The notes under the pieces: generated by a model | Database searches by the model: none | The model's input: the letters and a program-made list of their open reading frames with translations, nothing else | Told to the model about the DNA's origin: nothing | Shown here: piece after piece, positions 3,584 to 46,772 of the stretch | Numbering within the stretch: position 1 is the first letter of the stretch | How the letters are laid out: each line of letters opens with the position of its first letter | Source: a bacterium | Lineage (GTDB): Bacteria > Hydrothermota > Tepidihabitantia > B3-TA06 | Length of the DNA: 64,000 nucleotides | Direction of reading: 5' to 3' | Assembly: GCA_012517375.1 (NCBI GenBank) | Contig: JAAYVC010000095.1 | Coordinates: 7,061 to 71,060 of the forward strand | Made by a program: the position numbers and the translations under genes

Positions 3584-3653
3584 TATATCCTTATTGGAAG
3601 CTATGGAGGAGGAAGGAAAAAGATGTCGACGTTTTAACGCAAGGAGGACACTC

Positions 3654-4028
3654 ATGAAACATGAAATTTGGTATGATAACAAAGAAGATGTATTACGAGA
3701 AAGAATAATAGGTACATTAACAGAAGATGATATACCTGAATTCCTTGCCAAGGTTGCCGAATTATTTGAAGGTAAGACACGCAGACGAGCCATTATAGAT
3801 CTCACGCAGGCCTCAAAGCAGGTCTACAGCAAAAAAGCCAGACAAATGCTGTCTGAAGGTTCAGCAAAACTCGGTTATGAAGAAAAAATTGCTTTTGTGG
3901 GGGCGGACCCAACCATAAGAATGATGGCTAAGGTTCTCATTTCGGGAGCAAAATTCCTAGGCAAACCAATAACTGCTCAATTCTTTAAGACAGATAAAGA
4001 TGCGATTGACTGGTTAAATCGCCAATAA
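3654..4028 (+). CDS. SpoIIAA-like / STAS-fold protein (paralogue 1 of 5).
   Basis: I trimmed to the MKHEIWYD start, which has an RBS. The protein is 124 aa. Its C-terminal motif ...IRMMAKVL...FFKTDKDAIDWL is shared with the ORFs at 4974, 5463, 5865 and 8793. Confidence 0.6.
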   Translation: MKHEIWYDNKEDVLRERIIGTLTEDDIPEFLAKVAELFEGKTRRRAIIDLTQASKQVYSKKARQMLSEGSAKLGYEEKIAFVGADPTIRMMAKVLISGAKFLGKPITAQFFKTDKDAIDWLNRQ

Positions 4029-4051: not shown

Positions 4052-4678
4052 ATGGACAACTCAAAAATTGACGGATATGTAAGGCCTGCAAGGCCGGAAG
4101 ATGCCACGTATGCAGCCCCTCTTATAATCGAAACGGGATACGATACTATAATCATAAGTTTCGGATCATTAAAAAAGGGAAACCATGTTTTAAAAAGAAT
4201 GTTCTCCTTGCCTTCAAATATGCACAGTTTTCAACACAGTTCCGTGTACGTTAATCAGAACAAAGTTAAAGGTTTGCTTTTAGGATATGGTTCCGAGGAG
4301 GAAAGAAAAGAAACGCTGACAAGTTCAATGCTTCTGATTTCCTCAATGGGAATCTATGGCTTACTGCTTCTTGAAAGACTTTTACGAATCAGGAATCTTA
4401 TCGGCGAAATTCCTGACGAGGATTATTATATTCATTGTCTTGCGGTAAGTCCTGAATTGCGCGGTCAAGGCATAGGCTCCCTGCTTATGAAAGAAGCGGA
4501 ACGAATAGCCAAGCTTTCAAATAAAAAAAGGATTTCGTTGCTTGTTGAAGCAAGAAACAAACGAGCCATCAAGTTCTATCTTCGGGAAGGTTTTAAGGTA
4601 ATAGGACAAAGATACGATACGAGTTTCAAACAGCGATTTAACTTCGATAGCTACATGAAAATGACAAAAGCTCTCTGA
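4052..4678 (+). CDS. GNAT family N-acetyltransferase.
   Basis: The protein is 208 aa. It has the acetyl-CoA-binding motif LAVSPELRGQGIGSLLM and ...NKRAIKFYLREGFKV. Confidence 0.8.
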   Translation: MDNSKIDGYVRPARPEDATYAAPLIIETGYDTIIISFGSLKKGNHVLKRMFSLPSNMHSFQHSSVYVNQNKVKGLLLGYGSEEERKETLTSSMLLISSMGIYGLLLLERLLRIRNLIGEIPDEDYYIHCLAVSPELRGQGIGSLLMKEAERIAKLSNKKRISLLVEARNKRAIKFYLREGFKVIGQRYDTSFKQRFNFDSYMKMTKAL

Positions 4679-4973: not shown

Positions 4974-5354
4974 ATGGTGACTGAAAAAAAGTTCGAGGGT
5001 GCCTATAATGATGAAAAGAAGTATCTTCACGTTACGGTATACAAAATCGATTCTGCAGATGATGCGCATGGAATGTGGAAGATGATAATAAAGGAACTTG
5101 AAGGGAAAACAAATAGGGAGGTGCTTGTGGATCTGAGTCCAAATAAGCAGACCTCCGTTGCACTCTCGGCAAGAAAGGCTTTCAGGGAATACGAAGATTT
5201 TTTCACGACTATCTCCAAGGTCGCATTCATAGCGGAAAATCCAATAATCCGCATGCTCGTTAAAACGACAATGACCGTTATAGATAAAAATAAAGTCTCG
5301 AAGTATTTTAAAACCGTTTCTGAAGGTTTGGAATGGCTCAAGGAGGGCAATTGA
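4974..5354 (+). CDS. SpoIIAA-like / STAS-fold protein (paralogue 2).
   Basis: The protein is 126 aa with an RBS (GGAGGT). It contains ...VLVDLSPNKQTS... and the C-terminus IRMLVKT...YFKTVSEGLEWLKEG. Confidence 0.6.
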   Translation: MVTEKKFEGAYNDEKKYLHVTVYKIDSADDAHGMWKMIIKELEGKTNREVLVDLSPNKQTSVALSARKAFREYEDFFTTISKVAFIAENPIIRMLVKTTMTVIDKNKVSKYFKTVSEGLEWLKEGN

Positions 5355-5462
5355 ATAGCAATCTAAAAGGACAGGTTAAAAAAACATTGGAATCAAGCAG
5401 GCTGATGGAATTGTCAAATTGCCGCTTGAAAATAAATGCGAGACAAAAGGGAGTTATCTAAA

Positions 5463-5828
5463 ATGCTGCATGAGATTTATTTCGATTATAACACAGGCTC
5501 CATCAGGATGAATTTCAAGGGTTTGTTTACACCGCAAGATGCGGAAGAGTTTTTTCCGTTGACAAAAAAACTCTGCGAAGGAAAAAAACGCTGTTATCTC
5601 CTTTGTGATTTCAAGGAAGGAGGAACTGAAATACCTAAAGATAAGGAATACAGACAGTGGCTTATTAAAATGTACAAGGAATCTGGTTTCGATCGAATAG
5701 CAATCTTCAATACGTCGCCTTCCATGAGAATGCTTGCAAAGATAGCTCTCGCGGCAGCGGGACAATCTAAAAACGTCCGATTCTTCAAAACAGAAGAAGA
5801 GGCACTATCATGGTTTCAAAACGAATAA
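5463..5828 (+). CDS. SpoIIAA-like / STAS-fold protein (paralogue 3).
   Basis: I trimmed to MLHEIYFDYN, parallel to MKHEIWYDN of paralogue 1. The C-terminus is MRMLAKIAL...FFKTEEEALSWFQNE. Confidence 0.6.
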   Translation: MLHEIYFDYNTGSIRMNFKGLFTPQDAEEFFPLTKKLCEGKKRCYLLCDFKEGGTEIPKDKEYRQWLIKMYKESGFDRIAIFNTSPSMRMLAKIALAAAGQSKNVRFFKTEEEALSWFQNE

Positions 5829-5864: not shown

Positions 5865-6053
5865 ATGGATGAATACCTTATACCTCAGGCTCTGAATTTT
5901 CTCGATGAAGCCTGCAGAGAGATGAATTGGAAGAAAGTAGCGTTTATCAACGCCGGTTCTCTTGTCCTCATACAACGTCTTGCAGCAAAAGATGGAATTC
6001 GAATTTTCAACAGTAAAGATGAGGCATTGAACTGGTTGAAGGATGGATTATAA
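5865..6053 (+). CDS. Truncated SpoIIAA-like paralogue (C-terminal half only, 62 aa).
   Basis: It retains the family C-terminal motif LIQRLAAKDGIRIFNSKDEALNWLKDG. It has its own RBS (AAAAGGGGTG). Confidence 0.45.
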   Translation: MDEYLIPQALNFLDEACREMNWKKVAFINAGSLVLIQRLAAKDGIRIFNSKDEALNWLKDGL

Positions 6054-6332
6054 ACTATTTTTTTGTTAAATTATTATAATGCTATGCTCTTCACTTTCCC
6101 CTGTATCTAGTTTAGAAGATTATTGTAGGGTAATTCTGTATAATTATTCGTTAACTAATACCGTTTTTAAAAATAAGGATTATTCGAGCAATGGGGTTGC
6201 ATAAGAGGAAAATTATGTATAATTACGTTACGGGTATCGTAAAACTATTTGTATTGGTTTCAAGTGAGGTAATAAATCAGGAGGATGTAAAATCCTCAGG
6301 AAACCTCGTAATAAGATACTGAAGGAGTAAAA

Positions 6333-6986
6333 ATGGCTGAAGGAAAAGTAAAAGGAATCAGAAACTTCGAAAAGAGAATCGAAGCCATCGAAGAAGTGCT
6401 TGCTACTGCCGCTGGCGGCGATTTCATGTCAGAGATCTCCATCGATATGGAGGAACCTGATGTACTAACATCAGTTGAAACGGGCATAAATCTTTTGATT
6501 TCTGATCTCGGAGAAGAGGTACGCCAGAGTCAGAATCGTGCCCAGGAACTCCAGGATAAACTGGACCTAATCGAGAAACAAAGACAGGCAATCGAGGAGC
6601 TGTCAACACCCATAATAAAGATTTGGGATCAAGTGTTAGTCTTGCCTCTGATAGGCGCACTTGATACAAGACGTTCGCAAAAACTTACGGAATCGCTATT
6701 AAACGAGATTGCTTCAACTCAAAGCAAGGTCACGATACTTGACATCACGGGCGTTCCAACGGTGGATTCGGCAGTGGCTAACCACATACTCAAAACCGTT
6801 GCATCTGTGAAACTTCTCGGCGCCCAATGCGTAATTACAGGTATAAGACCTGAAGTCGCACAAACCATCGTTCACCTTGGAGTTGATCTATCTGAAGTCG
6901 AAACCCTATCAAATCTTTCAGAAGGACTCAAGTGGGCCTTCAAACATTTGCATCTTAAGATAACAGAAGATAACAAGAAGGCTTGA
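6333..6986 (+). CDS. rsbR: RsbR-like stressosome sensor/co-antagonist: a short N-terminal coiled-coil domain plus a C-terminal STAS domain.
   Basis: The C-terminal part STPIIKIWDQVLVLPLIGALDTRRSQKLTESLL...VTILDITGVPTVDSAVANHILKTVASVKLLGAQCVITGIRPEVAQTIVHLGVDL closely follows the RsbR STAS consensus. Confidence 0.8.
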   Translation: MAEGKVKGIRNFEKRIEAIEEVLATAAGGDFMSEISIDMEEPDVLTSVETGINLLISDLGEEVRQSQNRAQELQDKLDLIEKQRQAIEELSTPIIKIWDQVLVLPLIGALDTRRSQKLTESLLNEIASTQSKVTILDITGVPTVDSAVANHILKTVASVKLLGAQCVITGIRPEVAQTIVHLGVDLSEVETLSNLSEGLKWAFKHLHLKITEDNKKA

Positions 6987-6987
6987 A

Positions 6988-7422
6988 ATGCTGCAAAATA
7001 ATCCCGTTCCCATTCTCAAACTCAGGGATTTCCTCCTCGTTTCTATACAGACAGACCTCCATGACCGTATGGCAGAACAACTCCAATATGATATCCTCAG
7101 GCGGATTTCGGAAACGCAGGCGAAGGGCGTCTTGATAGATATCTCCGCATTAGAGATGGTCGATTCTTTCATTGGACGAACCCTTGCGGATACTGCACGA
7201 ATGGCAAACACGCTGGATGCAGAAATAGTAATAGTAGGAATGAAGCCTGCAGTCGCAATAACCCTAGTCGAACTCGGTCTTTCTCTTGGAGACGTTCAAA
7301 CCGCCCTTTCTTTGGAAGACGGATTCCACATCCTAGAAGAATCACTCCTTGATTCCAGTTCTAAAGACGAAGAGGAAGCTTCAGAAGAAACAGAGGTCGA
7401 AGAGAATGATGATTCCAATTAA
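6988..7422 (+). CDS. rsbS: RsbS-like stressosome scaffold (single STAS domain) with an acidic C-terminal tail.
   Basis: The sequence is PILKLRDFLLVSIQTDLHDRMAEQLQYDILRRISETQAKGVLIDISALEMVDSFIGRTLADTARMANTLDAEIVIVGMKPAVAITLVELGL. It starts 1 nt after the rsbR stop. Confidence 0.8.
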   Translation: MLQNNPVPILKLRDFLLVSIQTDLHDRMAEQLQYDILRRISETQAKGVLIDISALEMVDSFIGRTLADTARMANTLDAEIVIVGMKPAVAITLVELGLSLGDVQTALSLEDGFHILEESLLDSSSKDEEEASEETEVEENDDSN

Positions 7423-7792
7423 TGAGGAATCTGATATCGTTCACGCACGCAACGAAGCAAAGGAATTCGCAAAAAAGCTGGGATTCGGTCTTGTCGACCA
7501 GACAAGAATAAGCACAGCCGTATCCGAGCTCGCTCGAAACGTTTACACCTATGCAGGAAAAGGGGAGGTTACAATTCAAGAACTTTCAAATCCTCATCGG
7601 GGAATACGTATAGAGTTCAAGGATGAAGGACCTGGGATTGAAGACGTAGAACTCGCAATGCAGGACGGGTGGTCATCATCCCGGAGTATGGGCAAAGGAT
7701 TACCCGGCTCTAAAAGACTCGTCGATTTTATGGAGATAAATAGCAAACCTGGTTCAGGAACCTTAATTATTATTGAAAAATGGCTGAGTTGA
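7406..7792 (+). CDS. rsbT: RsbT-like switch serine kinase (GHKL ATPase).
   Basis: I trimmed to MMIPINEESDIVHARNEAKEFAKKLGF...ELARNVYTYAG...EDEGPGIED. The length and motifs match an anti-sigma-regulatory-factor kinase of about 130 aa. It overlaps the rsbS 3' end. Confidence 0.75.
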   Translation: MMIPINEESDIVHARNEAKEFAKKLGFGLVDQTRISTAVSELARNVYTYAGKGEVTIQELSNPHRGIRIEFKDEGPGIEDVELAMQDGWSSSRSMGKGLPGSKRLVDFMEINSKPGSGTLIIIEKWLS

Positions 7793-8796
7793 AACCAGAA
7801 AAAGGCGAACTTCAAATCGAAGTATCCGAACATATTCTCTGGGCTAAGGGTGTAGTAAAGCGATTCGCAGAAAAGCTTGGCTTCTATTCAAGCTCCCTTC
7901 ACGAAATAGAGCTTTGCGTTGCCGAACTTGCCACGAATCTTATCGTGCACAAGGTCAAAAATGGAAGATTGAGTTTTAACGCAATCTCTGAAAACGGGCT
8001 ACGCGGGATAGAAATCACGGCGCAGGACGAAGGACCTGGCATCAAAAACCTGCCGGACGCCTTGAGGGGAGGGGTAAGCTCCTCTGGCTCGTTGGGACAG
8101 GGTCTGGCTTCAGTACAACGATTTGCAGATGAATTCGAGATACATTCGAATCAGGAAGGAACGCATGTCAAAATACGCAAATACCTTCCACCTGAAAAAG
8201 AAAGCGAAGATACTTCCAGGAGAGACCTTACAGTCAGCGTTTCAGTAAGAACTCACCCCGAATCGACCGTTTGCGGAGATGGACATATAATCCGTCACGA
8301 CGGTCCAAAAACGCTTTTAGCCGTTATTGACGGCCTCGGACATGGCAAATCCGCACGGGAAGCCGCGGCCGCAGCCGAAGCTTATATACACGCTAATTAT
8401 CGGAAAACCCTGGAACAAATGCCTGAAGAATTGCATTCTATTCTGCGTCATACTAGAGGAGCGGTTGCATCCATAGCTAGAATCGACGAAGACAAGGAGA
8501 AAATTGACTACATTGGAGTCGGCAACATCAGTGCAAGATTATGGCTTCCTCAATCATCTGAAATGGTAAGGCTTGTCTCAATGAGCGGTACGCTCGGAGT
8601 CAGTCTTCGCACGCCGAGGCTTTTCAGTTATCCATGGAAAAAGAAAAGCGTTTTAATCATGCACAGCGACGGAATCCGCGAGCACTGGGAAGTTACAAAG
8701 AAAGAGCTTTCCGAATCGCCGACCGAAATAGCTCAGGAGTTGATTAAAAATTACTGGCGTAAAAACGACGATGCCACCGTTCTTGTCGCAAAATGA
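7780..8796 (+). CDS. Fusion protein: N-terminal RsbT/RsbW-like GHKL serine kinase domain plus a C-terminal PP2C (SpoIIE/RsbU/RsbX-type) phosphatase domain.
   Basis: The N-terminus VSEHILWAKGVVKRFAEKLGF...ELATNLIVHK...QDEGPGIKNL parallels RsbT. The C-terminus GDGHIIRHDGPKTLLAVIDGLGHGKSAREAA...IMHSDGI is a PP2C signature. Confidence 0.7.
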   Translation: MAELKPEKGELQIEVSEHILWAKGVVKRFAEKLGFYSSSLHEIELCVAELATNLIVHKVKNGRLSFNAISENGLRGIEITAQDEGPGIKNLPDALRGGVSSSGSLGQGLASVQRFADEFEIHSNQEGTHVKIRKYLPPEKESEDTSRRDLTVSVSVRTHPESTVCGDGHIIRHDGPKTLLAVIDGLGHGKSAREAAAAAEAYIHANYRKTLEQMPEELHSILRHTRGAVASIARIDEDKEKIDYIGVGNISARLWLPQSSEMVRLVSMSGTLGVSLRTPRLFSYPWKKKSVLIMHSDGIREHWEVTKKELSESPTEIAQELIKNYWRKNDDATVLVAK

Positions 8797-9173
8797 AACT
8801 CTTGAGTTTTACGGAGCAGGGCATATGTCGCATGCGACTCGAGGGGCTTCCCGAACCGAAAGAGATTGAAGATCTTATTGAAGAATATGTCACTCAAGTC
8901 GAGCTTCTTCCTTACTCTCTTAAAATAATATACTTTGATATTTCCAATCTCACCCACATGGGCGCGAGGGCAAGACAAGTTTTTTCGGAACTGCTTACCC
9001 AAGCTTCAATGCATTACGGCGGAAAAGTCCAGCTTGTTGTTGCAGGGGGATCACTCAATCTCAGACGTTTCATAGAGCTTTTCTGCAAAGGGATTGGATT
9101 CGTAGACCACAGCCACTTCTTTGAAACATTGAAAGAAGCTGATGATTGGGTGGCTGAATTTCTTTCTTCCTGA
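8793..9173 (+). CDS. SpoIIAA-like / STAS-fold protein (paralogue 5), a likely phospho-substrate (anti-anti-sigma-like) of the preceding kinase/phosphatase.
   Basis: It overlaps the upstream gene by ATGA. It contains ...IIYFDISNLTHMGARARQVF..., a DLS-x-SSG-like phospho-site region with Thr. The C-terminus FFETLKEADDWV matches the paralogue family. Confidence 0.55.
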   Translation: MKLLSFTEQGICRMRLEGLPEPKEIEDLIEEYVTQVELLPYSLKIIYFDISNLTHMGARARQVFSELLTQASMHYGGKVQLVVAGGSLNLRRFIELFCKGIGFVDHSHFFETLKEADDWVAEFLSS

Positions 9174-9239
9174 AACCCGTACTTGACAAAACCAAATACA
9201 ACCGCATAATAAAATTATAAACTCGTCAAGGAGGAGTCT

Positions 9240-10451
9240 TTGAATAAAACATTTCTTTTTGTCCTGGTTTTATACGCATCAACAGCGTTGATTGCAGGTG
9301 ATTCGCTAAATGTAAAGACAATTGGAAGCTACGAGTCCTCTACCCTTGCAAAATACATAACGATATCCGGGGATTATGCATATCTGTCGTGCTTTGATAT
9401 GGCGTTAAAAATCATTGATGTATCCGACAGAACCAATCCCATTGAAGTCAGCCATTATCAAACAACAGACTTCTACAATCCTAACGGAATCCACGTTTCA
9501 GGAACAAATGCCTTTCTTGCGTACGGTTTTGACAATGACAGTACAGGTATGGCTGTCGTAGATATCTCCAATGAATCCGGTCCGTTTGAAATCAGTTATA
9601 CACCAACCGAACTCAGGGCGCATGACGTTTATGTTTCCGGTTCGTACGCCTATGTTCCTGAGTGCCTGGGGCTTTGTATTTATGATATCTCTTCTCCATC
9701 AACACCGGATTCGATTGGATACTGCGAAATATCACTCTTATCCCATCCTCAATGCGTATTTGTTTCAGGTAATTATGCATACGTGGGCGGGACAAAAACC
9801 TTGAAGATAATCAATATAACCGATCCACACAAGCCCTTCGAATCAGGCTCCTGCACTGTGGAACCTTACGTTTGGGGCGTTTTCGTATCAGGTAACTACG
9901 CCTGCCTTGCGGCAGACATCTCAGGACTTAAGATACTGGACGTATCTGATCCCTCAAACCCCGCTGTTATCGGTTCGTACGACACACCTGGAAGCGCCAA
10001 TGCCGTTTACGTGTCCGGTTCTTATGCATACGTTGCGGATGACTTTGCTGGATTAAGAGTTATCGACATATCGACACCTACAACTCCACAAGAAGTGGGT
10101 TATTATGAGACCCCCAATATCGCTCTTGATGTCTATGCTTCTCATCCTTACGCTTATGTAACTTGCCAAAGCAAGGGTTTGCAAATATACGAATACGGAG
10201 AACTACCTGTATCGGTTAAGGAAACACAAGCGCAACAGCCGTGCATTTCCTGTTCTTTGAACAAACTAATCTATGATGTAGCTGAAAAGACGGATTTGAG
10301 AATATACGCTCCGAACGGTCGATTATTGTTTGTAACCCAGATATCCGGGAAAGGAGCAGTTGATTTTTCGAATAAGTTGGTAAGCGGTGTTTATTTCGCT
10401 CAACTAAGCGATGCTCCTGGGAACAGGGTTAAACTAGTTATCATGAATTGA
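9240..10451 (+). CDS. LVIVD-repeat secreted protein with a T9SS/Por-type C-terminal sorting domain.
   Basis: It has a signal peptide and TTG start. It carries 7 or more LVIVD-type repeats (VSGSYAYV...GL.I.DIS.P..P). The C-terminus is SGVYFAQLSDAPGNRVKLVIMN. Confidence 0.75.
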   Translation: MNKTFLFVLVLYASTALIAGDSLNVKTIGSYESSTLAKYITISGDYAYLSCFDMALKIIDVSDRTNPIEVSHYQTTDFYNPNGIHVSGTNAFLAYGFDNDSTGMAVVDISNESGPFEISYTPTELRAHDVYVSGSYAYVPECLGLCIYDISSPSTPDSIGYCEISLLSHPQCVFVSGNYAYVGGTKTLKIINITDPHKPFESGSCTVEPYVWGVFVSGNYACLAADISGLKILDVSDPSNPAVIGSYDTPGSANAVYVSGSYAYVADDFAGLRVIDISTPTTPQEVGYYETPNIALDVYASHPYAYVTCQSKGLQIYEYGELPVSVKETQAQQPCISCSLNKLIYDVAEKTDLRIYAPNGRLLFVTQISGKGAVDFSNKLVSGVYFAQLSDAPGNRVKLVIMN

Positions 10452-29982: not shown

Positions 29983-30034
29983 CAGAAATACATTTCTGCG
30001 TGTAATATTTTACAATAGAACTAAGGATTTGTCA
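29983..30034 (-). promoter_or_regulatory. Sigma70 promoter (TTGACA-N17-TAAAAT) for the OmpA-family gene, with a perfect 7-bp inverted repeat CAGAAAT-ac-ATTTCTG over the transcript start.
   Basis: The reverse strand reads gggacTTGACAaatccttagttctattgTAAAATattacacgCAGAAATgtATTTCTGc...AGGAGGctttacATG. Confidence 0.55.
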
Positions 30035-30312
30035 AGTCCCTTTAGACCTGAACTTAACTAACAAAAAATGAGCTCGTCAAGGCGCTGTAAATGCATGCTC
30101 GTCTTACTGGCTGTAAGATATTCCTTGCTTAAACTTATGATGAGTATGTTTTTACAACCTCTCGAATCCGCTATAAAGTTATCCACAATCCACAATTCAA
30201 GGAATAAGGCAGGCATAAGTGCAGTGATTCATTAATCCTGACTCGGTTTGTGGCACGCTTTCCGCTCGCCGTAGCACGCTTGAGGTCAGGTTTTATGGAC
30301 AAATACTCCCCA

Positions 30313-30356
30313 AAAGCTGGTCAAAAGATGGTCAGAAGATGGTCAAATGATGGTCA
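30313..30356 (+). repeat. Four tandem copies of the 11-bp direct repeat RAWGMTGGTCA.
   Basis: The copies are AAAGCTGGTCA AAAGATGGTCA GAAGATGGTCA AATGATGGTCA. The same unit recurs at 53412-53444 and 53542-53607. Confidence 0.9.
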
Positions 30357-30748
30357 ATTTCGAGGGTGTTGGGTGCTCAGGTATTGTTTTAAGACCCGAT
30401 CCACTGAGTGAAAGCCGACCCTATTTCTTTGTAGAGATTAAGCAGGTCGGTTTACCTTGTGCTCTTGAGCTTTTCCTTAGTCTTGGGTTCGGACAGGCCT
30501 TGTGGGAACTCAGGAGGATAATAAATAGCAATAGCCATATCTGCGCTTAATTGCTCTATTCTTTTCTTAGCATCGGCTTCGGCATCTTGCTTGGAGTAGG
30601 AACCCTCAAGAACAACGGCAAGACCTTGATAGGAAACAAGGACATCCTGTCTTCCCTTTTTCCCTATTAGTTCGGCTCTTGAGATAATGCCTGTTTGGTG
30701 AAGTAACTCTGACAGGTAAACGTTTAGAATACTCTCATAAACAAACTT

Positions 30749-32974
30749 CTACTTCAGTATCACGAACTTGACGCGCTCGGAGCGCGCGGCAAAGCGCACG
30801 ACCGCTATGTAGAGCCCGGCTGAAAGGTTCTGCACCCCGAGCTCCGCCTGTTTTACGCCCTGTATGGTTCGGAACCCGGACGAGGGAATCTCCGCAACCC
30901 TCTCCCCTGCCAGGGTGTAGATGACAACGCTTTGCGCGTCGTCGAGCGGCGTAAAGCGCACGGGCAGTCCAAGCGACGCATAGCAAGGATTAGGGTATAC
31001 GGATATTTTTTCAGACGTTGTGTCGGTGTATTTGGGCATGGTGAAGAGTGACACCCCTCCCCCTGCAGTGCCTATTGCAACACGTCCGGTGCGGTCCGCC
31101 GAGAGCGTCGTGTAGTCGAATCCCGGCATGATGGAGCTGTTGGATGTCGTGAAAATCTGCCACAGCCCTGCGGAGGTGTCGTATGCAGCGCCTGCCGGAT
31201 CGTGCACCAGCAAGCCTTTGTGCTTCATGAGGAAGTACAGTCTGCCCCAGGGATCCCGGTCCACGTCGACAATATCGTTCTCCATCATCGAAAGGTTGTT
31301 CTGGTTGTAGCGGGTTGTTGAGTTCTGGGTCCAGTGGAACACTCCCTCATTGGTTGCGCCCCAGCATCCGCCCCGGCCGTCCAGAGCTATGCCCGTAACC
31401 TTGGAGTTCGTAAGAAGACGCTCGCTGAACTCGCCGTGCTCGAGGTCGGAGACGAAGTCCTGCGGCTTGTATGAGATAAGTCCTGCGCTTGTCGCGGCCC
31501 AGAGCGTGCTGGAGTCGAACTTAAGGTCCCAGACATAGTCGTAGGGCCAGTCCAGGACCGCAATCTCTTCGAGGTCATCTGATAGGACGCGCAGCTGGTT
31601 CGAGTAGAATATGGAGACCCAGATCCTGTCCAGAGGGTCAACCGCCAGCCATGAAACCCTGTTCGACACGGGCGAAGCGCCCCATGAGTGCTCCTCCCAT
31701 GCGCCCGCGACCGGATCGAATCTTGTAACGCCTCTGCCGCCCCACCATCCTCCGAAAACAACTCTTCCCTTTGAATCAACGGCAGTGATCTTGGTGGATG
31801 CGTCGAAATCTACGGTATCATTCTCCGTATAAGCCCTGTAAATGAAGTTCTCCCAATGCCCATCGTGATATCGTGTGACGCCTCGTTCATTATAAGCAAA
31901 CCAGTGCGCGGTCCAGAGGTTCTGATTATCATCAAGAAGCGCGTGGAATATGTAGTTCGAATTAAGCCCAGGATTGTCTACAACCTTGACGCGATTCTTC
32001 TTCACGTCCCAGACAACCAGGCCGTCTCCTGCGAACTCACCTGATGCTCCCGCCCATACTCTTCCCGAAGCGTCCGTCCTTACGCAGGAAATCGTCCTCA
32101 TCCAGTGAGGGGCTGTGCCCGCAGATGCGTTTATCCAAAACCCGATAGTATCAAGCGTATCGAGAGATTCTACGTATCTGAACAGACTCTTGTAAGTCCC
32201 TGAAATTCCGAGCGTGGAAACGTAAAAAGTGTCTCCTGCCTCTGCGATAGAAGTGAACTGGGGCAGGGGGTCCTGAAAGGCATAAACAGTCTTGAAGAAG
32301 CCGGAATCCGCATCGTATCTGGCAAACCCTTTCGAACACAGCGCAACCATGGATTCTTCGATGCATACGTCTGCAACGTCGGAGGATGGAAGCCCTTTTG
32401 AAATCGCATACCACTGAGTTGAGTCTCCATTAAGATAGTAGCGCAACAAACCTATGGATGTCGCCATCCATAAATCCCCCATGAACCATGCGGCCTTTCG
32501 AATCGAATACTCTTGAGAGTTCTCAGGAGTAAAAAAGAATACATCGTCATCTTCAAAGCTGCCGGGTGTATTCATCGTTCGTATGATATAGATCCCTGTC
32601 TTTGTCACCACTGCAAGCGTATCTCCGGACAAGGCAAGAGAGAAAACAGTATCAGAAATACCCTGGTAGCGCCTGGCCGCGCCCGAAGAAGGCACGATAA
32701 GGGCCAGCCCAAGATCGGTTCCGGCCCAGAGTTCACCCGTTTGAGTAATGGCAATAGCCCTCGATGTGTTGTGAGGCAAACCGTCCGTGTTTCTGAACGA
32801 GAGCGTAAATGAAGAGTCCTCCAGCGAAAAGAAATGGACTCCGCCGTTAGTCGCGCACCATGCGCCTTCGTCCGAGGGCGCGATGTCGTAAATCCTGTTG
32901 GAGTTCAAAAGACTTGTCCATTCTCCGGCCTTTATGCTTGAGAAAAAAAGGATTGCTGTAAAAAAAGCTGTCAT
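30749..32974 (-). CDS. Secreted beta-propeller protein (two-component-regulator-propeller-like repeats) with a T9SS-type C-terminal sorting domain.
   Basis: It has a signal peptide and repeated ...GGV/GL..F...W.. propeller-like blocks. The C-terminus is AGLYIAVVRFAARSERVKFVILK. GC is about 60%. Confidence 0.6.
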   Translation of the reverse strand: MTAFFTAILFFSSIKAGEWTSLLNSNRIYDIAPSDEGAWCATNGGVHFFSLEDSSFTLSFRNTDGLPHNTSRAIAITQTGELWAGTDLGLALIVPSSGAARRYQGISDTVFSLALSGDTLAVVTKTGIYIIRTMNTPGSFEDDDVFFFTPENSQEYSIRKAAWFMGDLWMATSIGLLRYYLNGDSTQWYAISKGLPSSDVADVCIEESMVALCSKGFARYDADSGFFKTVYAFQDPLPQFTSIAEAGDTFYVSTLGISGTYKSLFRYVESLDTLDTIGFWINASAGTAPHWMRTISCVRTDASGRVWAGASGEFAGDGLVVWDVKKNRVKVVDNPGLNSNYIFHALLDDNQNLWTAHWFAYNERGVTRYHDGHWENFIYRAYTENDTVDFDASTKITAVDSKGRVVFGGWWGGRGVTRFDPVAGAWEEHSWGASPVSNRVSWLAVDPLDRIWVSIFYSNQLRVLSDDLEEIAVLDWPYDYVWDLKFDSSTLWAATSAGLISYKPQDFVSDLEHGEFSERLLTNSKVTGIALDGRGGCWGATNEGVFHWTQNSTTRYNQNNLSMMENDIVDVDRDPWGRLYFLMKHKGLLVHDPAGAAYDTSAGLWQIFTTSNSSIMPGFDYTTLSADRTGRVAIGTAGGGVSLFTMPKYTDTTSEKISVYPNPCYASLGLPVRFTPLDDAQSVVIYTLAGERVAEIPSSGFRTIQGVKQAELGVQNLSAGLYIAVVRFAARSERVKFVILK

Positions 32975-32993
32975 CTGTCCCCCTTATATTTGT

Positions 32994-35900
32994 TTATTTT
33001 AATTCATCCAACGCTTCCTGCGCCCGCATCCCGAAGGGGTCGTTGATGCCGCGCGAAGCGATGATGGCCTCGAAAATAACCCTTGCATCCTCAAGACGCT
33101 CGAGCTGAACGTAGCCCGAACCGGCCTGGAACCAGCTCTCGAGTCCCCACTGATCCTGCGGGAATTCATCGTGACATTTAAGGAACAGGGAGACCGCCTT
33201 CTCGGTATGCTCAGGGTCTGCAAAAGCGGCGTACGAACGGGCAGTCCAGTAAAGGAGCCTTGCTCTGTCCTTCGTGACGAGCGGAGTGGCCTTCTCGAAG
33301 TACGTGACCGCCTGCGAAAACTTGTACGCATTGTATGCCGTTATGCCTAGTTCGGTGTAAAGATCGCCGCGCTCCTCGGGAGAGCTGGATTCGTTCACAA
33401 GGGTTTCAAAATACTCGAAGGCTTTGTTGTATTCCTCCTTGTTCCTTGCAATAACGGCAAGATTGCGAAGAGCTGAGGAACGAAGATCAGGGTCCGCGAG
33501 AGCGTCGGAATAATGCAGGGCGGCGCTGTCAAGCTCCTGGATCATGTAGAAGAGCGTTCCCAGCTTGAAGTGAACGGCGGGTACAAGCTGGCTGCGCGGA
33601 AAGGCTTCGAGGAACGCCTTGAAATTCTCGAGGGCTTCCTCCTGCCTGCCGGCTTTTGCCGCAGTCAATCCTTTATAGTAGATGTAGTTCTCGTTGCGCA
33701 TGAGCGAACGAACGTTCGAAAGGGACGAAAGTACCTTGTCCGCTTCGTCAACACTTCCCGCGTTGAGAAGATAGCCAACCTTTTCAAGAAGCAGTGCGGA
33801 CTGGTCTCCTGGACTCAGCAGATCGAGCCTCATCCACAACGAATCCGCTTCCTTCAGTTCGCCGGAGCGGTAGAGCGCCGTCACGAGTTTGGATAGAACG
33901 AGCGTATCCGTAGGGTTGGCCGCATAGAGTTTTCGCAAGGTTGCGACGGCGTTTGAGTCCTCGCCGCCGGCAAGCTGGTGCTGAGCGACCAGGAAGTCGG
34001 CCTTTGATACAAGACTCGAATCCCTGCCTTCACTGACCAGACGTTCAAGCAGATGCCTTCCGAGTCTGTTGTGATCAACGAGGCTTAATCCGACTCCGGA
34101 CCAGTAAAGATATGGGTCCTTGAGCGCAGCGGGCCTCTGATGCATCAAGCTTTTGACATCGTCGACCTTTGCAAGCTGGCTCTCGACTTTCGCGACCTTA
34201 ATCCAGAACGAGATTTCGTCCTGGTACTCCGAATCCTCGAGAGCGCGTGCAAACTCATCCAGTTCGTTGTACTGCCTCAGCTTGAATATGAGTCCGAGCG
34301 CTTTGTGCCAGATATCCCGCGGTATCACGCCGAGCTCGACTGCCATGTTTCTGTAAAGCGAAAGCGCCTCAAGATTGCGTCCTCGAGACTCCTCTATCTC
34401 GGCCAGATTCTTTAATGCAAGATAATAGACAGTATCGTGGGGAGATATTGAAAGTATAAGGTTGAACTTCGCCGACGCGTCGCTTGTATCAGCCTCAAGC
34501 AGCGCCAGCTCCGCTAGCTCGTACAGCACGGGAAGATTGTAGGAGCTCTTCGGTTTTGTCAGATAAAGATTCTCCCACTCGCTTCGGGCCGCAACAGTAT
34601 CGCCAAGAGAAAGCTGGACACCGCCCAGAAGGAAACGGATTTCATCCGAGTAGCGGCCTTCGGGAAAGTGGTCGAGATAGTTGAGCGCCCTCTCCATCTT
34701 CTTCAGGGGATCCCTTAGTTCTATGAGGAAGAGACGGTACAGAGCGTCCTCGACGAGAGCGTCCTCAGGAAACTGCCAGTATAGATTCTCGTATCTCTCC
34801 CTTGCCTTGTCAAGCAATCTAACCTTGCCATCCTTCAGGTAAAGGCGCTCATAGGACAAGGCGGAGTAGTAAAACGCCTGAGGAGTCGCAACGGTATCAA
34901 GGAAGGAGATTGCGCCCTCGTAATCCTTCGCATCCTCGAAAAGAATCTTGCCCTTCTCCGAAGAGGTCGTTGCCCTTACCAGTTTTTTTAAGGCGGCATC
35001 GGCGTCTTTGAATTCAAAGTATTTAATGATGTCAGCTTCCCTCTGAACCTCGGAGCGGTTTACCGAATAAGGCGCCCTTTTAAGGAAATCGCTATAATAA
35101 TCGAGCGCTTCCTTGGGAAGTCCTCGCGAGTTTGCAAACCTTGCCCTTCTTAAGATGTCCTCTACCCTTTCGAATTTCGACAGAGAAAGAAGTCTATCGT
35201 ACGTCTGGAAATCTTTCTTTTCGCTGAGTGCATCCAGCACTTTTTCGAATTCATCCCATGTCTTGAAGCTGGCGTCTGTCAAAGCCCGTGCATCGTATTC
35301 GAGTCCCGATAGTATTCTTGCCTTCGCCTCGAGGGCGCGATCGGATTGAGTGAAGGAAAGCTTCTTTCGAGCATCGTCGTAAGCCTTAAGGGCTTTTGGC
35401 GTATTGCCCAGAAGCGAATAGGAAGAAGCAAGGGGAAGCAGGGCATCGTAATAATGCTGTTTTGAAGCCGATTCAAAGTACTCGACCGCATCCTCGTAGA
35501 GAGAGAAACTCTCGAAAAGTTTACCCAAGGCGTATGCCTGCGCCGGGTTGATTGTCGACGGCTCGCCCATTGCAAGACCCGCCTCCATTGAAGAAAGGCT
35601 GTCTGCCCTTGCAAGGGTTGCATCTATCTGAAGCGAAGCAACAGTTGCCGCAACCTGCGGATAGGTTTTTTCAAGATCGGCAAGATACGGTCTCAGGAGA
35701 TCTTGTCTTCCTGCGGCAAGAAGCATCTTTGCACCCATGAGCCGCAGATCAGGGTCGTCAATGGTCATATAGACATCGCGCGCGCGCTCGTACTCCTTTG
35801 CCTCCTCGAGTTTCATTGCGAGGCGAAGCTTCACGTCCTTCGCAGGTTCAAGACGCGGATATTTCATGAATAGTTCGTAGGATTTTGCGAGCTGCCCCAA

Positions 35901-36188
35901 TTCAAGGGATGAGATTACGCATCTTTCAAGAGCGTAAGGGTCAGGGTCGGAAGATTCGGCAAGATGGCGCTCAAGGTAGCGCAGGGCCTTGTCGTATCTC
36001 GAAAGCGCGAATGCGGACTGTCCGGCGATAAGAAGCGCGCTGTCCTGTGCCTCGAAACCGGGTTCAAGCAGAAGCTGTTCCATCGCGTAGAGCGCGGGTC
36101 CGTAAAGCCCGTTGCGGTAAGCCTCAACCGCCTGATCGAAATCCTCCCTGGGAGTGGAGAAAAGAAAAACGAGAAGCACAGAAAACAT
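32994..36188 (-). CDS. Large tetratricopeptide-repeat (TPR) protein, secreted or periplasmic.
   Basis: It is 1064 aa with a signal peptide. It has pervasive TPR-like A/Y/L periodicity (ALRYLER..., AIEYFE..., AVTYFEKA...). Confidence 0.7.
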   Translation of the reverse strand: MFSVLLVFLFSTPREDFDQAVEAYRNGLYGPALYAMEQLLLEPGFEAQDSALLIAGQSAFALSRYDKALRYLERHLAESSDPDPYALERCVISSLELGQLAKSYELFMKYPRLEPAKDVKLRLAMKLEEAKEYERARDVYMTIDDPDLRLMGAKMLLAAGRQDLLRPYLADLEKTYPQVAATVASLQIDATLARADSLSSMEAGLAMGEPSTINPAQAYALGKLFESFSLYEDAVEYFESASKQHYYDALLPLASSYSLLGNTPKALKAYDDARKKLSFTQSDRALEAKARILSGLEYDARALTDASFKTWDEFEKVLDALSEKKDFQTYDRLLSLSKFERVEDILRRARFANSRGLPKEALDYYSDFLKRAPYSVNRSEVQREADIIKYFEFKDADAALKKLVRATTSSEKGKILFEDAKDYEGAISFLDTVATPQAFYYSALSYERLYLKDGKVRLLDKARERYENLYWQFPEDALVEDALYRLFLIELRDPLKKMERALNYLDHFPEGRYSDEIRFLLGGVQLSLGDTVAARSEWENLYLTKPKSSYNLPVLYELAELALLEADTSDASAKFNLILSISPHDTVYYLALKNLAEIEESRGRNLEALSLYRNMAVELGVIPRDIWHKALGLIFKLRQYNELDEFARALEDSEYQDEISFWIKVAKVESQLAKVDDVKSLMHQRPAALKDPYLYWSGVGLSLVDHNRLGRHLLERLVSEGRDSSLVSKADFLVAQHQLAGGEDSNAVATLRKLYAANPTDTLVLSKLVTALYRSGELKEADSLWMRLDLLSPGDQSALLLEKVGYLLNAGSVDEADKVLSSLSNVRSLMRNENYIYYKGLTAAKAGRQEEALENFKAFLEAFPRSQLVPAVHFKLGTLFYMIQELDSAALHYSDALADPDLRSSALRNLAVIARNKEEYNKAFEYFETLVNESSSPEERGDLYTELGITAYNAYKFSQAVTYFEKATPLVTKDRARLLYWTARSYAAFADPEHTEKAVSLFLKCHDEFPQDQWGLESWFQAGSGYVQLERLEDARVIFEAIIASRGINDPFGMRAQEALDELK

Positions 36189-36197
36189 CTTGACCCG

Positions 36198-36944
36198 CTA
36201 CATGAGCATTCCGCCGTCCACCCTGATCACCTGACCGGTGATGTAGGAGGCGTCATCCGAACAAAGGAACTTGACGACCTTTGCAACGTCTTCCGGGGTG
36301 CCCGGCCGCTTCAGGGGAATCTGTTTGAGGAAGTATTCCTTGACCTCATCGGGCAGGACTTCCGTCATTGGCGTCTGGATATACCCTGGCGCCACGCAGT
36401 TTACCGTTATGTTTCTCGAGCCCAGCTCGCGTGCAAGAGTCATTGAAAAGCCAATTAGGCCCGCCTTGGATGCCGAGTAGTTTGCCTGGCCTACGTTTCC
36501 CATCTGCCCGACTACCGAACTCATATTGATTATACGGCCCCAGCGCTCCTTCATCATCGACTTGACGAAAGCCTTTGATACATTGAATGCGCCAGTGAGA
36601 TTGACCTTAAGCACCGTTTCCCAGGTATTTGAGTCCATGCGGATGAACAGCGTGTCGCGCGTTATCCCGGCGTTGTTTATTACTATGCTGACAGTGCCCT
36701 GCTCCTGCTCTATTCGCAAGGCAAGCTCATTCATCGCATCGAGAGATGTAACGTCGGCTTTGTAAAAAAAAGCCTCTCCTCCAGCGTCTTCGACGAGTTT
36801 CTTTGTTTCTTTGAGTCCTTCCTCGTTAACATCCAGAAGAATCTCGCGGTAAGTGCCTGCCAGTTCCAACGCTATTGACCTGCCTATTCCTGCTGCCGCA
36901 CCTGTTATCAATGCCCTTTTGGTTTCATTCACAATTTCCTCCAA
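36198..36944 (-). CDS. fabG: 3-oxoacyl-[ACP] reductase (SDR family).
   Basis: It has TGAAAGIGRSIA, NNAGITRD and YSASKAG catalytic-tetrad motifs. It is 248 aa. Confidence 0.85.
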   Translation of the reverse strand: MEEIVNETKRALITGAAAGIGRSIALELAGTYREILLDVNEEGLKETKKLVEDAGGEAFFYKADVTSLDAMNELALRIEQEQGTVSIVINNAGITRDTLFIRMDSNTWETVLKVNLTGAFNVSKAFVKSMMKERWGRIINMSSVVGQMGNVGQANYSASKAGLIGFSMTLARELGSRNITVNCVAPGYIQTPMTEVLPDEVKEYFLKQIPLKRPGTPEDVAKVVKFLCSDDASYITGQVIRVDGGMLM

Positions 36945-36950
36945 ACTGTA

Positions 36951-38681
36951 TCATCGAACAAGAGTCAGCGTACTCTTGCTCCGCTCTTTGACCAATCCGT
37001 TTTCGTACGTTTCGATTATATAGAAATAAAGTCCGGAAGCCACCGGTTTCTTGCCGTCGTTCCTGCCGTCCCAGTAAGCGACTCGACCGTAGACGCTTAT
37101 CTCAGCGGGCTTCTCATCGAGAACCCTGACCCGCTCGCCCGCGAGATTGTAGATGTAGACCTTGAAATCGGGGTACTGACCCTGGGTCTTTTCTTCGTCC
37201 GTAGGTTCGTAGACGATGGTTACTTTCTCCCTTTCATGCGCGTTGAAGGGATTAGGATAAGAGTAGGTTCTGCCGAGAAGAAGAGCCGCTATCTCTAATC
37301 TGGCCGTCATTATGCTGTCGGCTTCTGATATGAGGGATACGGAAGCGCCCGAAGGCACGCCGTCATAAAATCTGCTGGATGGCACCGAGGAGTTCGAGAA
37401 ACCGAAGCTGTCGGACTTCCACAGATCGGATGCCGAACCCTGGCCCGAGGTGAAGAGGAATTGAGGGCTGCCGTCGGCCTGCATAATTCCTACCAGAGGA
37501 TTCGAAAGATTGTTGTTGTTCTCCTGGGATTCATCGACATGGAGTACAAGAAGCCCGTCTCCGGGCAATCCCTTGTCGAATCCCTTGCGCCTTCGGTTTT
37601 CGGCAAGAAAATATTCTCCTATGCCGGCTTTCTCGAAAGACCACTCGGCGCCGGATGGGTTCGCAAATATCCTCCATGCCGAGGCGGATGAATTCGATTC
37701 GGCGAACTCCGCCGCATCAACCTCTTCAAGGGCTCCCCTCTCAAGCGACTGCGGTTCCACCCAGCCGAGGAGATACTTGCACCACGCAGAGGGATGAACA
37801 GGAGATGAACCAGCAGGCGTTCCGCCCCACGAACCAGATGCCATGAGGCAGAAGATGCCGAGACCTGCAGAGCCTGAGGATGGACCATCGGTGATGTAGA
37901 GGTCGGGCAAGCCGAATCCGTGGCCCCACTCGTGGCAGAATACGCCAATGCTCGATATCGTTCCATCGACGGACTCGCTTGAGCGCTCGGGGTTGATGGT
38001 GTAGACGTCTATCTTTATCTTCTGGCCCGGGTGATTGGGATCGGCATCGTTCGTCTCATAGACGCCAGGGCCTCCGTAGGACGCCCAGCCTGAGAGAGAG
38101 AACTCGTGGGACCAGATATCGCCGGTGATTCCGGTCTCCTCTGCTCCGTAGCCAACGTGTATGACGGTGAAGATATCTACATACCCGTCGCCGTCGTTGT
38201 CGTACAGCGAGTAGTCGACCGATGCATCGGACGCCTGACAGGCCTCAAGAACGAGCGCGCCTGCCGAACGCGCATAGTTGTTGCCTATGCCGTAGTTGTC
38301 GTCGGCATAGTAGGATGCAGTGTATTTTGCAGGATACGGCCCGACTACTTGGCCTCGCAGATCAACTTTTCCGTAGGAAACCTCTTCGTAATAGTCGTGC
38401 GCGGACCCGCTGGTCCAAGGTCCGTCGAAGAGCATAGCCTGAAAATCAGAGGCATCATACTCAGCCCCGACGTCTGAATACGACATGAACACTACAGGGA
38501 AACGCCTAGTTCCGGATACTGTCTGGATCTGTATGTTTCCAGTTGTTGTCCGAGCGAATCCCCTGGATTGATTCAGTCCCAGTTCTCCGTATCTTTGCCA
38601 GGCATTAGCTGATAACGTTACCCCCGCCTTGGGAGGCATTGACCACAGCAACGCAAGTGTCGCACACAGTGCGGCATTCAT
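36951..38681 (-). CDS. M6-family (immune inhibitor A-like) zinc metalloprotease with a T9SS-type C-terminal sorting domain.
   Basis: It has HEWGHGFGLPDLY (HExxH...D/E). It has a signal peptide. The C-terminus is GLYFYIIETYENGLVKERSKSTLTLVR. Confidence 0.7.
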   Translation of the reverse strand: MNAALCATLALLWSMPPKAGVTLSANAWQRYGELGLNQSRGFARTTTGNIQIQTVSGTRRFPVVFMSYSDVGAEYDASDFQAMLFDGPWTSGSAHDYYEEVSYGKVDLRGQVVGPYPAKYTASYYADDNYGIGNNYARSAGALVLEACQASDASVDYSLYDNDGDGYVDIFTVIHVGYGAEETGITGDIWSHEFSLSGWASYGGPGVYETNDADPNHPGQKIKIDVYTINPERSSESVDGTISSIGVFCHEWGHGFGLPDLYITDGPSSGSAGLGIFCLMASGSWGGTPAGSSPVHPSAWCKYLLGWVEPQSLERGALEEVDAAEFAESNSSASAWRIFANPSGAEWSFEKAGIGEYFLAENRRRKGFDKGLPGDGLLVLHVDESQENNNNLSNPLVGIMQADGSPQFLFTSGQGSASDLWKSDSFGFSNSSVPSSRFYDGVPSGASVSLISEADSIMTARLEIAALLLGRTYSYPNPFNAHEREKVTIVYEPTDEEKTQGQYPDFKVYIYNLAGERVRVLDEKPAEISVYGRVAYWDGRNDGKKPVASGLYFYIIETYENGLVKERSKSTLTLVR

Positions 38682-38685
38682 AACG

Positions 38686-39042
38686 TCACTTCTTAGTCTC
38701 CTCCTTCTCCTTCATCGAGCATCGGCCTTCAAAAAAGACGTTGTCCTGAATCACGAGCCCTTTGCATGTGACGTCGCCAGTCAGATTCGCCCCTGAATGC
38801 ATCTCAACCTTGCCGTGCGAATAGACGTTACCCTCTATTCTTCCGCCGACAAAGGCATCCTTGCAGCGAACGTCGCCTTTAACCCGGGCGCTTGAACCGG
38901 CCGTGAAGGTATCGGAGACGGTTATGTTGCCTTCGAACTCTCCGTCTATACGGAGACTGCCCTTAGTTTTAACGTTGCCTGTAATTATTGTCTCTTTTCC
39001 AATTATCGTATCAAGCTTGGCGTCTTTGCCAGTGCTATTCAT
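38686..39042 (-). CDS. Bactofilin family cytoskeletal protein.
   Basis: It is 118 aa with beta-helical repeats (GSLRIDGEFEGNITVSD...ARVKGDVRCKDAFVGGRIEGNVYSHGKVEMHSGANLTGDV). Confidence 0.8.
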   Translation of the reverse strand: MNSTGKDAKLDTIIGKETIITGNVKTKGSLRIDGEFEGNITVSDTFTAGSSARVKGDVRCKDAFVGGRIEGNVYSHGKVEMHSGANLTGDVTCKGLVIQDNVFFEGRCSMKEKEETKK

Positions 39043-44496: not shown

Positions 44497-44499
44497 TCT

Positions 44500-45810: not shown

Positions 45811-46102
45811 GAAAATATCCGGTTATTATGCCTGCTTCGTTGAATGCTATATCCCAGAAGCCCACCTGCCTTCCAGGAGCAAGAAGTTGAAGAAACTCGT
45901 TTCCTGCTCCGAAGGCGAGAACGAGAATTGCTGCCCACCATCCGAATGACCTTGAGGTAAGGTATCCCAGATACGAAAATGCAAAAAAATGCAGTATCTT
46001 ATCCATGGGGAATTTGTGAGCAGGCGTTATCCTTCCCGGTATGAGGGAAAGCGCGACCAGGAATAACACCCATACGATAAGATATACGTGATACCGCCGC
46101 AT
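45770..46102 (-). CDS. VanZ-like family membrane protein.
   Basis: It is 110 aa with 3-4 transmembrane helices. It has DKILHFFAFSYLGYL and NEFLQLLAPGRQVGFWDIAFNEAG. Confidence 0.55.
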   Translation of the reverse strand: MRRYHVYLIVWVLFLVALSLIPGRITPAHKFPMDKILHFFAFSYLGYLTSRSFGWWAAILVLAFGAGNEFLQLLAPGRQVGFWDIAFNEAGIITGYFLGYWRKKRALSAG

Positions 46103-46103
46103 C

Positions 46104-46721: not shown

Positions 46722-46772
46722 GAAAACCTCTCTTCCGCAGATTGAGCAATTCTCTTATAAAAGGTCTTCAAC

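Follow-up and report, generated by a model that had tools for sequence, protein, structure and literature searches.

Introduction

In the stressosome family, RsbR and RsbS sequester the kinase RsbT, signal-dependent phosphorylation frees RsbT, and RsbX resets the system; in Bacillus subtilis, paralogues of RsbR co-assemble in the stressosome core. Here we describe a relative of these systems in a 64,000-nucleotide (nt) stretch of contig JAAYVC010000095.1 (referred to below as the window, with positions counted from its first letter) from a bacterium of the B3-TA06 lineage. Five plus-strand genes at 6333-9173 encode homologues of RsbR, RsbS and RsbT, a protein in which an RsbT-like GHKL domain is fused to a PP2C phosphatase domain (gene 4, or X), and a small last protein that we call G5. 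We consider it likely that the locus is a sigma-independent rsbRSTX stressosome. In this reading, an RsbT-paralogous domain would dock and so tether the reset phosphatase, and G5 would fill the output slot as an adaptor that cannot be phosphorylated.

A module consisting of rsbRSTX without sigB is a widespread form of the system, in which RsbX serves as the reset phosphatase (PMC9237108). Our locus has the same R-S-T-X order, translational coupling, domains and phospho-acceptors as the minimal modules of Vibrio vulnificus (VvRsbRSTX) and Moorella thermoacetica (MtR, MtS, MtT and MtX), and like them it has no sigB, rsbU, rsbV or rsbW and a variable gene after X (PMC9237108). However, MtX, with 193 amino acids, and the Vibrio RsbX (PMC9237108) are single-domain proteins, whereas X of this locus has an extra N-terminal RsbT-like domain. 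In addition, its RsbR has no globin or other sensor, and its output slot holds a small STAS-fold protein rather than an enzyme.

Like the sigma-B stressosome of B. subtilis, the locus has R, S, T and X components, with residues that correspond to T171 and T205 of RsbRA and to S59 of RsbS, with GHKL boxes, and with the metal-binding Asp residues of the PP2C. It differs in having no RsbU, RsbV, RsbW or sigma factor, in placing rsbX directly after rsbT, and in fusing X to an RsbT paralogue. The SiaABC and RsbV-RsbW systems likewise encode a GHKL kinase-like domain, a PP2C domain and a small STAS-fold protein together. There, however, these are separate proteins, while here the kinase-like and PP2C parts form one polypeptide in a stressosome context, and G5 appears to have no conserved acceptor Ser/Thr. 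The families PF11964 (DUF3478; PDB entries 2OOK and 2Q3L) and PF25056 (DUF7793) are matched by three small proteins, U1-U3, that are encoded upstream of the operon; G5 is a remote relative of these, in a tiny family found only in WOR-3.

Results

The five plus-strand open reading frames (ORFs) at 6333-9173 were confirmed at their coordinates, and four independent assemblies from this organism have the same five genes called. A sequence-only reading of this DNA that preceded our analysis had described overlaps of 1-17 nt throughout the operon. This is correct for rsbS/rsbT (17 nt), rsbT/gene 4 (13 nt) and gene 4/G5 (4 nt, ATGA), but rsbR and rsbS do not overlap, being separated by a 1-nt spacer (TGA-A-ATG). 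For rsbT, the gene-caller start is the ATG at 7406, the start that is also called in the four assemblies, versus a mechanical ORF start at the TTG at 7349. The domain order given by Pfam bears out the earlier description of an R-S-T stressosome set followed by a single GHKL plus PP2C polypeptide. An NCBIfam scan agreed with Pfam, giving sub-threshold anti-sigma-antagonist and spIIAB-type matches and none for G5.

Residues of RsbR, RsbS and RsbT were compared with those of 74-80 homologues from other genomes. RsbR (6333..6986, + strand; 217 amino acids) is an RsbR-like co-antagonist with a C-terminal STAS domain (Pfam STAS, E = 5.6e-18, residues 95-187). Its D145-S146 corresponds to T171 of B. 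subtilis RsbRA, a column that holds Thr in 68 of 74 sequences and Ser in the other 6, and its T178 to T205 (Thr in 73/74). With 80% identity to the WOR-3 orthologues, it is the most highly conserved protein of the operon. The N-terminal region is short and helical; in residues 1-95 no sensor domain was recognised, the one match being to a coiled coil and weak (E = 0.002), so that "a short coiled-coil N-domain" was a fair description of it. RsbS, the putative scaffold and antagonist (6988..7422, + strand; 144 amino acids; Pfam STAS, E = 3.2e-11), has D59-S60 at the canonical phospho-acceptor position, B. subtilis S59, and this pair is invariant in the 78 RsbS sequences of the surveyed loci. The acidic C-terminal tail that had been noted is indeed present, and identity to the orthologues is ~70% over the full length, including this tail. 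RsbT, an RsbT-type GHKL serine kinase by homology (7406..7792, + strand; 128 amino acids; HATPase_c, E = 1.9e-09; HATPase_c_2, E = 1.4e-08; NCBIfam spIIAB, E = 5.9e-14), has an N box (E41, N45), a G1 box (D73xGxG77) and a G2 box (G96xG98) that are invariant in 80/80 sequences. Judged by these residues, R-S-T is a canonical stressosome triad. Because the sensor domain is variable within the RsbR family, the missing sensor makes the locus a variant of the rsbRSTX module and does not exclude it from the group.

Gene 4 (7780..8796, + strand; 338 amino acids) has a HATPase_c_2 domain at residues 24-134 (E = 6e-13) and a SpoIIE/PP2C domain at residues 177-337 (E = 7.3e-11). We divide it into an RsbT-paralogous GHKL part (residues 1-139), a linker (140-148) and an RsbX-type PP2C part (150-338). 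None of the motifs whose loss would have spoken against two functional domains is missing in the window protein: the N box (E49...N53), G1 box (D83-E-G-P-G87) and G2 box (G106-x-G108) are intact, as are the PP2C motifs CGD167G, D184GLGHG, HSD297G and D330D331. Within the family alignment, D167, D184, D297, D330, D331 and E49 are invariant, N53 has a conservation of 90% or more, and most members keep the G1 and G2 boxes; two members (P0015 and P0017) have the G1 box deleted. AlphaFold2 gave two well-folded domains joined by a disordered linker (140-148) with their relative orientation undefined (predicted local distance difference test score, pLDDT, 88.7; predicted template modelling score, pTM, 0.59).

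The sequence-only reading had taken this protein for a fusion of an RsbW-type kinase with an RsbU-type phosphatase that oppose each other on an antagonist. The evidence goes against this. In the PDB, the PP2C half has sequence matches only to RsbX of B. subtilis (3W40; E = 4e-16) and MtX of Moorella (3ZT9; E = 5e-15), and the N-terminal half, whose PDB sequence match is SpoIIAB, is 39% identical to the operon's own RsbT; the context, moreover, is rsbS-rsbT. RsbX-like PP2Cs have been described as having a 'GN' signature in motif 5 (PMC4524716), and the gene 4 PP2C carries VGN. By these features we assign the PP2C half to the RsbX-type feedback phosphatases. A search with the 3ZT9 sequence ruled out that MtX itself is a two-domain kinase-phosphatase, since the full protein has 193 amino acids and PF07228 only. 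The B. subtilis RsbX chain is also single-domain (199 amino acids).

The fusion is not unusual but is a widespread fourth gene of stressosome modules. A protein search with gene 4 returned 794 relatives, and nearly all of those listed carry PF13581 together with PF07228; in the source records they are named 'ATP-binding SpoIIE family protein phosphatase' or 'anti-sigma regulatory factor/PrpC'. A scan with one genome per species found the fused gene in at least 454 loci, from groups that include Acidobacteriota, Bacteroidota, Nitrospirota, Cyanobacteria, Bacillota, Bipolaricaulota, KSB1, Methanomicrobiales and Promethearchaeota. We then surveyed 79 loci with a full ORF of the fused homologue, calling ORFs mechanically. 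The gene lies directly downstream of rsbS-rsbT in 78 of the 79 and of rsbR-rsbS-rsbT in 71; six of the loci without the full set are cut by a contig end. Outside the WOR-3 clade, the fused gene occurs without G5. Its conserved partners are therefore RsbR, RsbS and RsbT, encoded upstream. What follows the fusion varies.

The protein encoded next after the fusion has an RsbT-like (HATPase_c_2) domain of its own in 52 of 71 loci (L009-L084), and in 49 of these 52 the domain is N-terminal; such operons thus hold three RsbT-like domains. In the two annotated cases (for example L009:9057-10424), the RsbT-like domain is combined with HisKA-HATPase, in one also with REC. Other proteins in this position are GGDEF-EAL, RsbU_N-HD-GYP and RsbU_N-histidine kinase-REC outputs. 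Loci L034-L083, from Bacteroidota, have a conserved set of six genes (for example L034:6129-11208) encoding a PF11964-like protein, a short RsbR (~229 amino acids), RsbS, RsbT, the fused X, and a hybrid histidine kinase with an RsbT-like domain.

Four archaeal loci (L008, L014, L055 and L069), from metagenome-assembled genomes of Promethearchaeota (Asgard) and Methanomicrobiales, have the full R-S-T-fused-X arrangement, and the genome of Methanoplanus endosymbiosus also encodes the fused protein.

As the sequence-only reading had stated, neither a sigma nor an anti-sigma gene was found in the window, but this absence is normal for rsbRSTX outside the Bacillales (PMC9237108). A phmmer search with SigB and RpoE sequences as its two queries detected no sigma factor in the 64-kb window, although a divergent one could escape it, and no sigma Pfam family is listed within 10 kb on either side of the operon. 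Homologous loci are not regularly accompanied by a sigma/anti-sigma pair either, since the same two queries found one extracytoplasmic function (ECF) sigma factor in 87 loci. RsbU_N domains, further RsbT-like domains, and REC homologues of the G5-linked regulators described below were also not found in the window. The operon itself does not encode the final output.

G5 (8793..9173, + strand; 126 amino acids) has no Pfam or NCBIfam match. We found 31 homologues, of which the named ones are all from WOR-3 and the rest are metagenome entries; none has a Pfam domain, and a HMMER scan of 1.84 billion representatives gave four G5 clusters only. G5 is thus a lineage-specific protein confined to WOR-3-type bacteria. 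An AlphaFold2 model built from a 26-sequence alignment (pLDDT 92.3) has the topology beta-beta-alpha-beta-alpha-beta-alpha-beta-alpha. Foldseek matched it to SpoIIAA in its complex with SpoIIAB (1TH8_B; E = 5e-06, TM score 0.67-0.72) and further to RsbS (6JHK), DUF3478 (2Q3L), stressosome chains and SiaC. G5 is therefore predicted to be STAS/SpoIIAA-like at the level of the fold. An hhalign profile-profile comparison, the only link to these proteins, matched it to the family of U1-U3 with a probability of 96.5%, which makes it a remote homologue of them.

This predicted fold agrees with the earlier description of G5 as SpoIIAA-like, but the Thr that had been placed at its phospho-site is off-site. 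The overall hhalign probability between G5 and RsbS is 2%, and only the local DIS...DS motif alignment was used; the site was mapped from this motif together with the predicted start of a helix, not by residue-level superposition. The RsbS/SpoIIAA motif D-I-S-x-L-x-x-[MV]-D-S aligns with D49-I-S-N-L-T54-H-M-G57-A58 of G5, so that A58 falls on RsbS S60, and helix 2 begins at residue 58 of the model. Column 58 is Ala, Val, Ile or Leu in 26/26 orthologues. T54, four residues upstream of the acceptor position, varies among Thr, Ile, Val, Arg, Lys, Ala and Glu, and position 60, two residues past the canonical site, is Ser/Thr in most orthologues and Ala in the window protein. Among the positions of G5 that do not vary are D49, I50, S51, H55, R61, S65, S72 and W119. 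By this mapping, with G57-A58 in place of the Asp-Ser pair, G5 is predicted to be without the canonical phospho-acceptor, and it probably works by binding, not by being phosphorylated. The phospho-Ser of SpoIIAA is likewise not conserved in DUF3478/PF11964, whose structures show a nonpolar cavity that can open and for which ligand binding has been proposed (PMC2954212).

The WOR-3/Stahlbacteria loci, the closest of which have ~66% identity in gene 4, vary widely in what accompanies rsbT, gene 4 and G5. In L089, five U genes are followed by R-S-T-X-G5; L007 reads G5'-U-U-R-S-T-X-G5, and L006 reads U-S-T-X-G5, without rsbR. In three loci that share the chromosomal neighbourhood of the window, rsbR is absent and rsbS is cut to its C-terminal 66-77 residues, without the phospho-Ser (L005:7778-8011, L087:6397-6597 and L088:5406-5630); T-X-G5 is intact there, at 66-72% identity. 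In one WOR-3 lineage (L086:7054-8004 and L090:6096-7004), the homologue of gene 4 is without any of the PP2C Asp motifs and has lost the G1 box and N-box residues; this degenerate pseudo-enzyme is still kept between rsbT and G5, and G5 itself is retained at 63% identity. As read from the sequence, the persistence of the degenerate gene 4 argues for a binding role beyond catalysis. In the same two loci, G5 is followed, with a 4-nt overlap, by a REC-PatA_N/DUF4388 gene (the pair at L086:8001-9091 and L090:7001-8130). A stand-alone REC gene begins 4 nt after G5 in L085 (the pair at 8001-8793), where no R, S, T or X is nearby; a 135-amino-acid ORF before this G5 is probably spurious, having no Pfam match and an odd composition. 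Overall, G5 is conserved as strongly as RsbT and gene 4, and its tightest linkage is to T-X; at times it is also linked to REC proteins.

Upstream of the operon, on the plus strand, lie three genes for small STAS-like paralogues: U1 (3594..4028; PF11964, E = 2.2e-06; DUF7793, E = 5.8e-05; gene-caller start 3603 or 3654), U2 (4974..5354; DUF7793, E = 4.4e-07; phmmer to U1, E = 3e-10) and U3 (5436..5828; PF11964, E = 1.9e-09; phmmer to U1, E = 1.5e-15; gene-caller start 5463). U1 and U3 pass the family cut-off of PF11964, and U2 and U3 that of DUF7793; G5 matches neither Pfam model. A fourth ORF, U4 (5865..6053, + strand; 62 amino acids), has no Pfam match and is called in four assemblies. Its resemblance to the U proteins is confined to their C-terminal half, with a C-terminal motif, 'IFNSKDEALNWLK', that by eye matches 'FFKTxxEAxxWL' of U1-U3, and it is probably a truncated U paralogue.

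In WOR-3 loci, the module is preceded by between one and five U genes, in most loci by three to five. In the surveyed loci, a U-type gene lies immediately upstream of rsbR in 28 of 29 cases where RsbR is shorter than 250 amino acids, versus none of 40 where RsbR is long; of eight long RsbR proteins that were checked, six carry RsbRD_N, PAS or protoglobin. The 28 U-linked loci are mostly from Bacteroidota, with one from Stahlbacteria, so they are not independent events, but the link spans at least two phyla. We found no description of a stressosome linkage of the PF11964/DUF7793 families in the literature.

Discussion

Most of the operon is a member of a known, widespread module, and its working can be sketched from that module. 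By analogy with the biochemistry of the B. subtilis and Vibrio systems, RsbR and RsbS would form a STAS-domain core that sequesters RsbT; on a signal, RsbT would phosphorylate RsbS Ser60 and RsbR Ser146/Thr178 and then be released. Gene 4 would dephosphorylate the core and so reset the stressosome. Most likely, its RsbT-like domain docks on the same STAS surfaces as RsbT, while the flexible linker holds the PP2C domain near its phospho-substrates. U1-U3 and the truncated U4 probably supply an input to the sensor-less RsbR or act as extra core subunits for it. G5, which stands where other lineages carry an output enzyme, might bind an RsbT-like domain, either RsbT or the N-terminal part of gene 4, by non-covalent partner switching; we put this last step forward with low confidence.

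Several points weigh against this scheme. The characterised RsbX proteins, MtX and B. subtilis RsbX, are single-domain, so the extra domain is a putative docking unit, and literature searches on the architecture and on the NCBI product name found no paper describing the fused form. The intact GHKL motifs of gene 4 could mean a genuine kinase activity. The role suggested for G5 is read from its predicted fold and its position only. Finally, T-X-G5 is kept in genomes that lack rsbR and have a truncated rsbS; a self-contained T/X/G5 unit would account for this better than a picture of stressosome and reset alone.

Some of these observations would be accommodated if gene 4 were a bifunctional kinase/phosphatase acting on G5, in a switch like those of RsbV, SpoIIAA or SiaC, with the phospho-state of G5 controlling a non-transcriptional target. 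The predicted STAS fold of G5, with SiaC among its structural matches, the 4-nt overlap of the two genes and the intact motifs in both halves of gene 4 would suit such a switch, as would the T-X-G5 adjacency that is kept across WOR-3 loci even without rsbR and rsbS, and most G5 orthologues do have Ser/Thr at position 60. In the window protein, however, that position is Ala, the acceptor position itself is A58 (Ala, Val, Ile or Leu in all 26 orthologues), and T54 is variable; the related PF11964 family also has no conserved acceptor Ser (PMC2954212). Furthermore, the fusion is found without G5, and in a stressosome context, in at least 75 loci of other phyla, and L086/L090 keep G5 at 63% identity beside a gene 4 that is degenerate in both of its catalytic halves. 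We regard this switch as very unlikely. To make the N-terminal domain of gene 4 a real second core kinase, for instance for RsbR Thr178, with its own phosphorylation cycle or as a heterodimer with RsbT, seems highly improbable to us. Its close paralogy to RsbT and its N, G1 and G2 boxes, which most family members keep (E49 without exception, N53 in 90% or more), would be expected of a kinase, but a separate rsbT gene is always kept beside gene 4, and the losses of the G1 box in P0015/P0017 and of G1 and N-box residues in L086/L090 indicate that some family members do without ATP binding.

G5 and the U proteins could, instead of serving as outputs, be extra STAS-fold core subunits that co-assemble with RsbR and RsbS, as the RsbR paralogues of B. 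subtilis do, some of them perhaps bringing a ligand-binding input. This would suit the apparent homology of G5 and U1-U3, which have a predicted STAS-like fold or match families of that kind, the multiple U copies upstream of WOR-3 modules and the association of U genes with short, sensor-less RsbR (28/29 versus 0/40); the nonpolar cavity of DUF3478 is also suggestive of ligand binding (PMC2954212). For G5, however, it is hard to reconcile with L085, where G5 has a REC gene next to it but no R, S, T or X gene, with the persistence of G5 where core genes are deleted, and with an alignment to RsbS that covers a short local motif only. As a whole we judge it unlikely, and we retain the reading of a tethered reset phosphatase with G5 as an adaptor.

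A bolder extension of that reading, which we offer as speculation with the chances against it, is that T-X-G5 is a self-contained, phosphorylation-independent partner switch. G5, with its invariant His55, would bind RsbT-like domains and relay the state of the stressosome to REC proteins, and the PF11964/DUF7793 proteins would be trans-acting sensors or core subunits of stressosomes with a sensor-less RsbR. If true, this would provide the first function for these two uncharacterised families and would account for the fusion of RsbT-like domains, seen in several phyla, to output kinases as well as to the reset phosphatase. The RsbT-like domain that heads the outputs of most Acidobacteriota and Bacteroidota loci suggests a general stressosome-docking module. 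The sensing and the targets of stressosomes outside the Firmicutes are largely open, and the U genes and G5 are concrete candidates for input and output. The fused RsbX, the WOR-3-specific G5 and the PF11964/DUF7793 link extend current models and overturn none.

Genomic neighbourhood of the operon

The AT-rich intergenic region 5' of rsbR (6054..6332) likely contains the operon promoter, as it has two TGTATAAT-like elements that were read directly; these elements are not among the sites listed by a consensus promoter scan. Downstream, a plus-strand promoter-like site at 9183..9210 (TTGACA-16-CATAAT, 11/12 matches) precedes the next gene, and the operon therefore ends with G5. This next gene (9240-10451) encodes an LVIVD-repeat protein (Pfam LVIVD) whose C-terminus by eye resembles a type IX secretion system sorting signal; it is missing at that position in the sister loci L087 and L088. 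Between U1 and U2 lies a gene for a GNAT acetyltransferase (4052..4678, + strand; Acetyltransf_1, E = 3.5e-15). Its membership in the system is uncertain, as the sister WOR-3 loci do not have it beside the module, and we keep it as context only. An anti-phage defence reading of the region was dropped, as PADLOC gave no match for any of nine proteins.

The GC content of the window rises from ~0.40 in positions 1-30000 to 0.50-0.54 in 30000-50000, across a long run of minus-strand genes. These include genes for histidyl-tRNA synthetase (44500-45810), V-type ATPase subunit A (48263-50035), two M42 aminopeptidases, M23 and M6 peptidases, and a large tetratricopeptide repeat protein. The run looks like housekeeping DNA, and a genomic island is not obvious.

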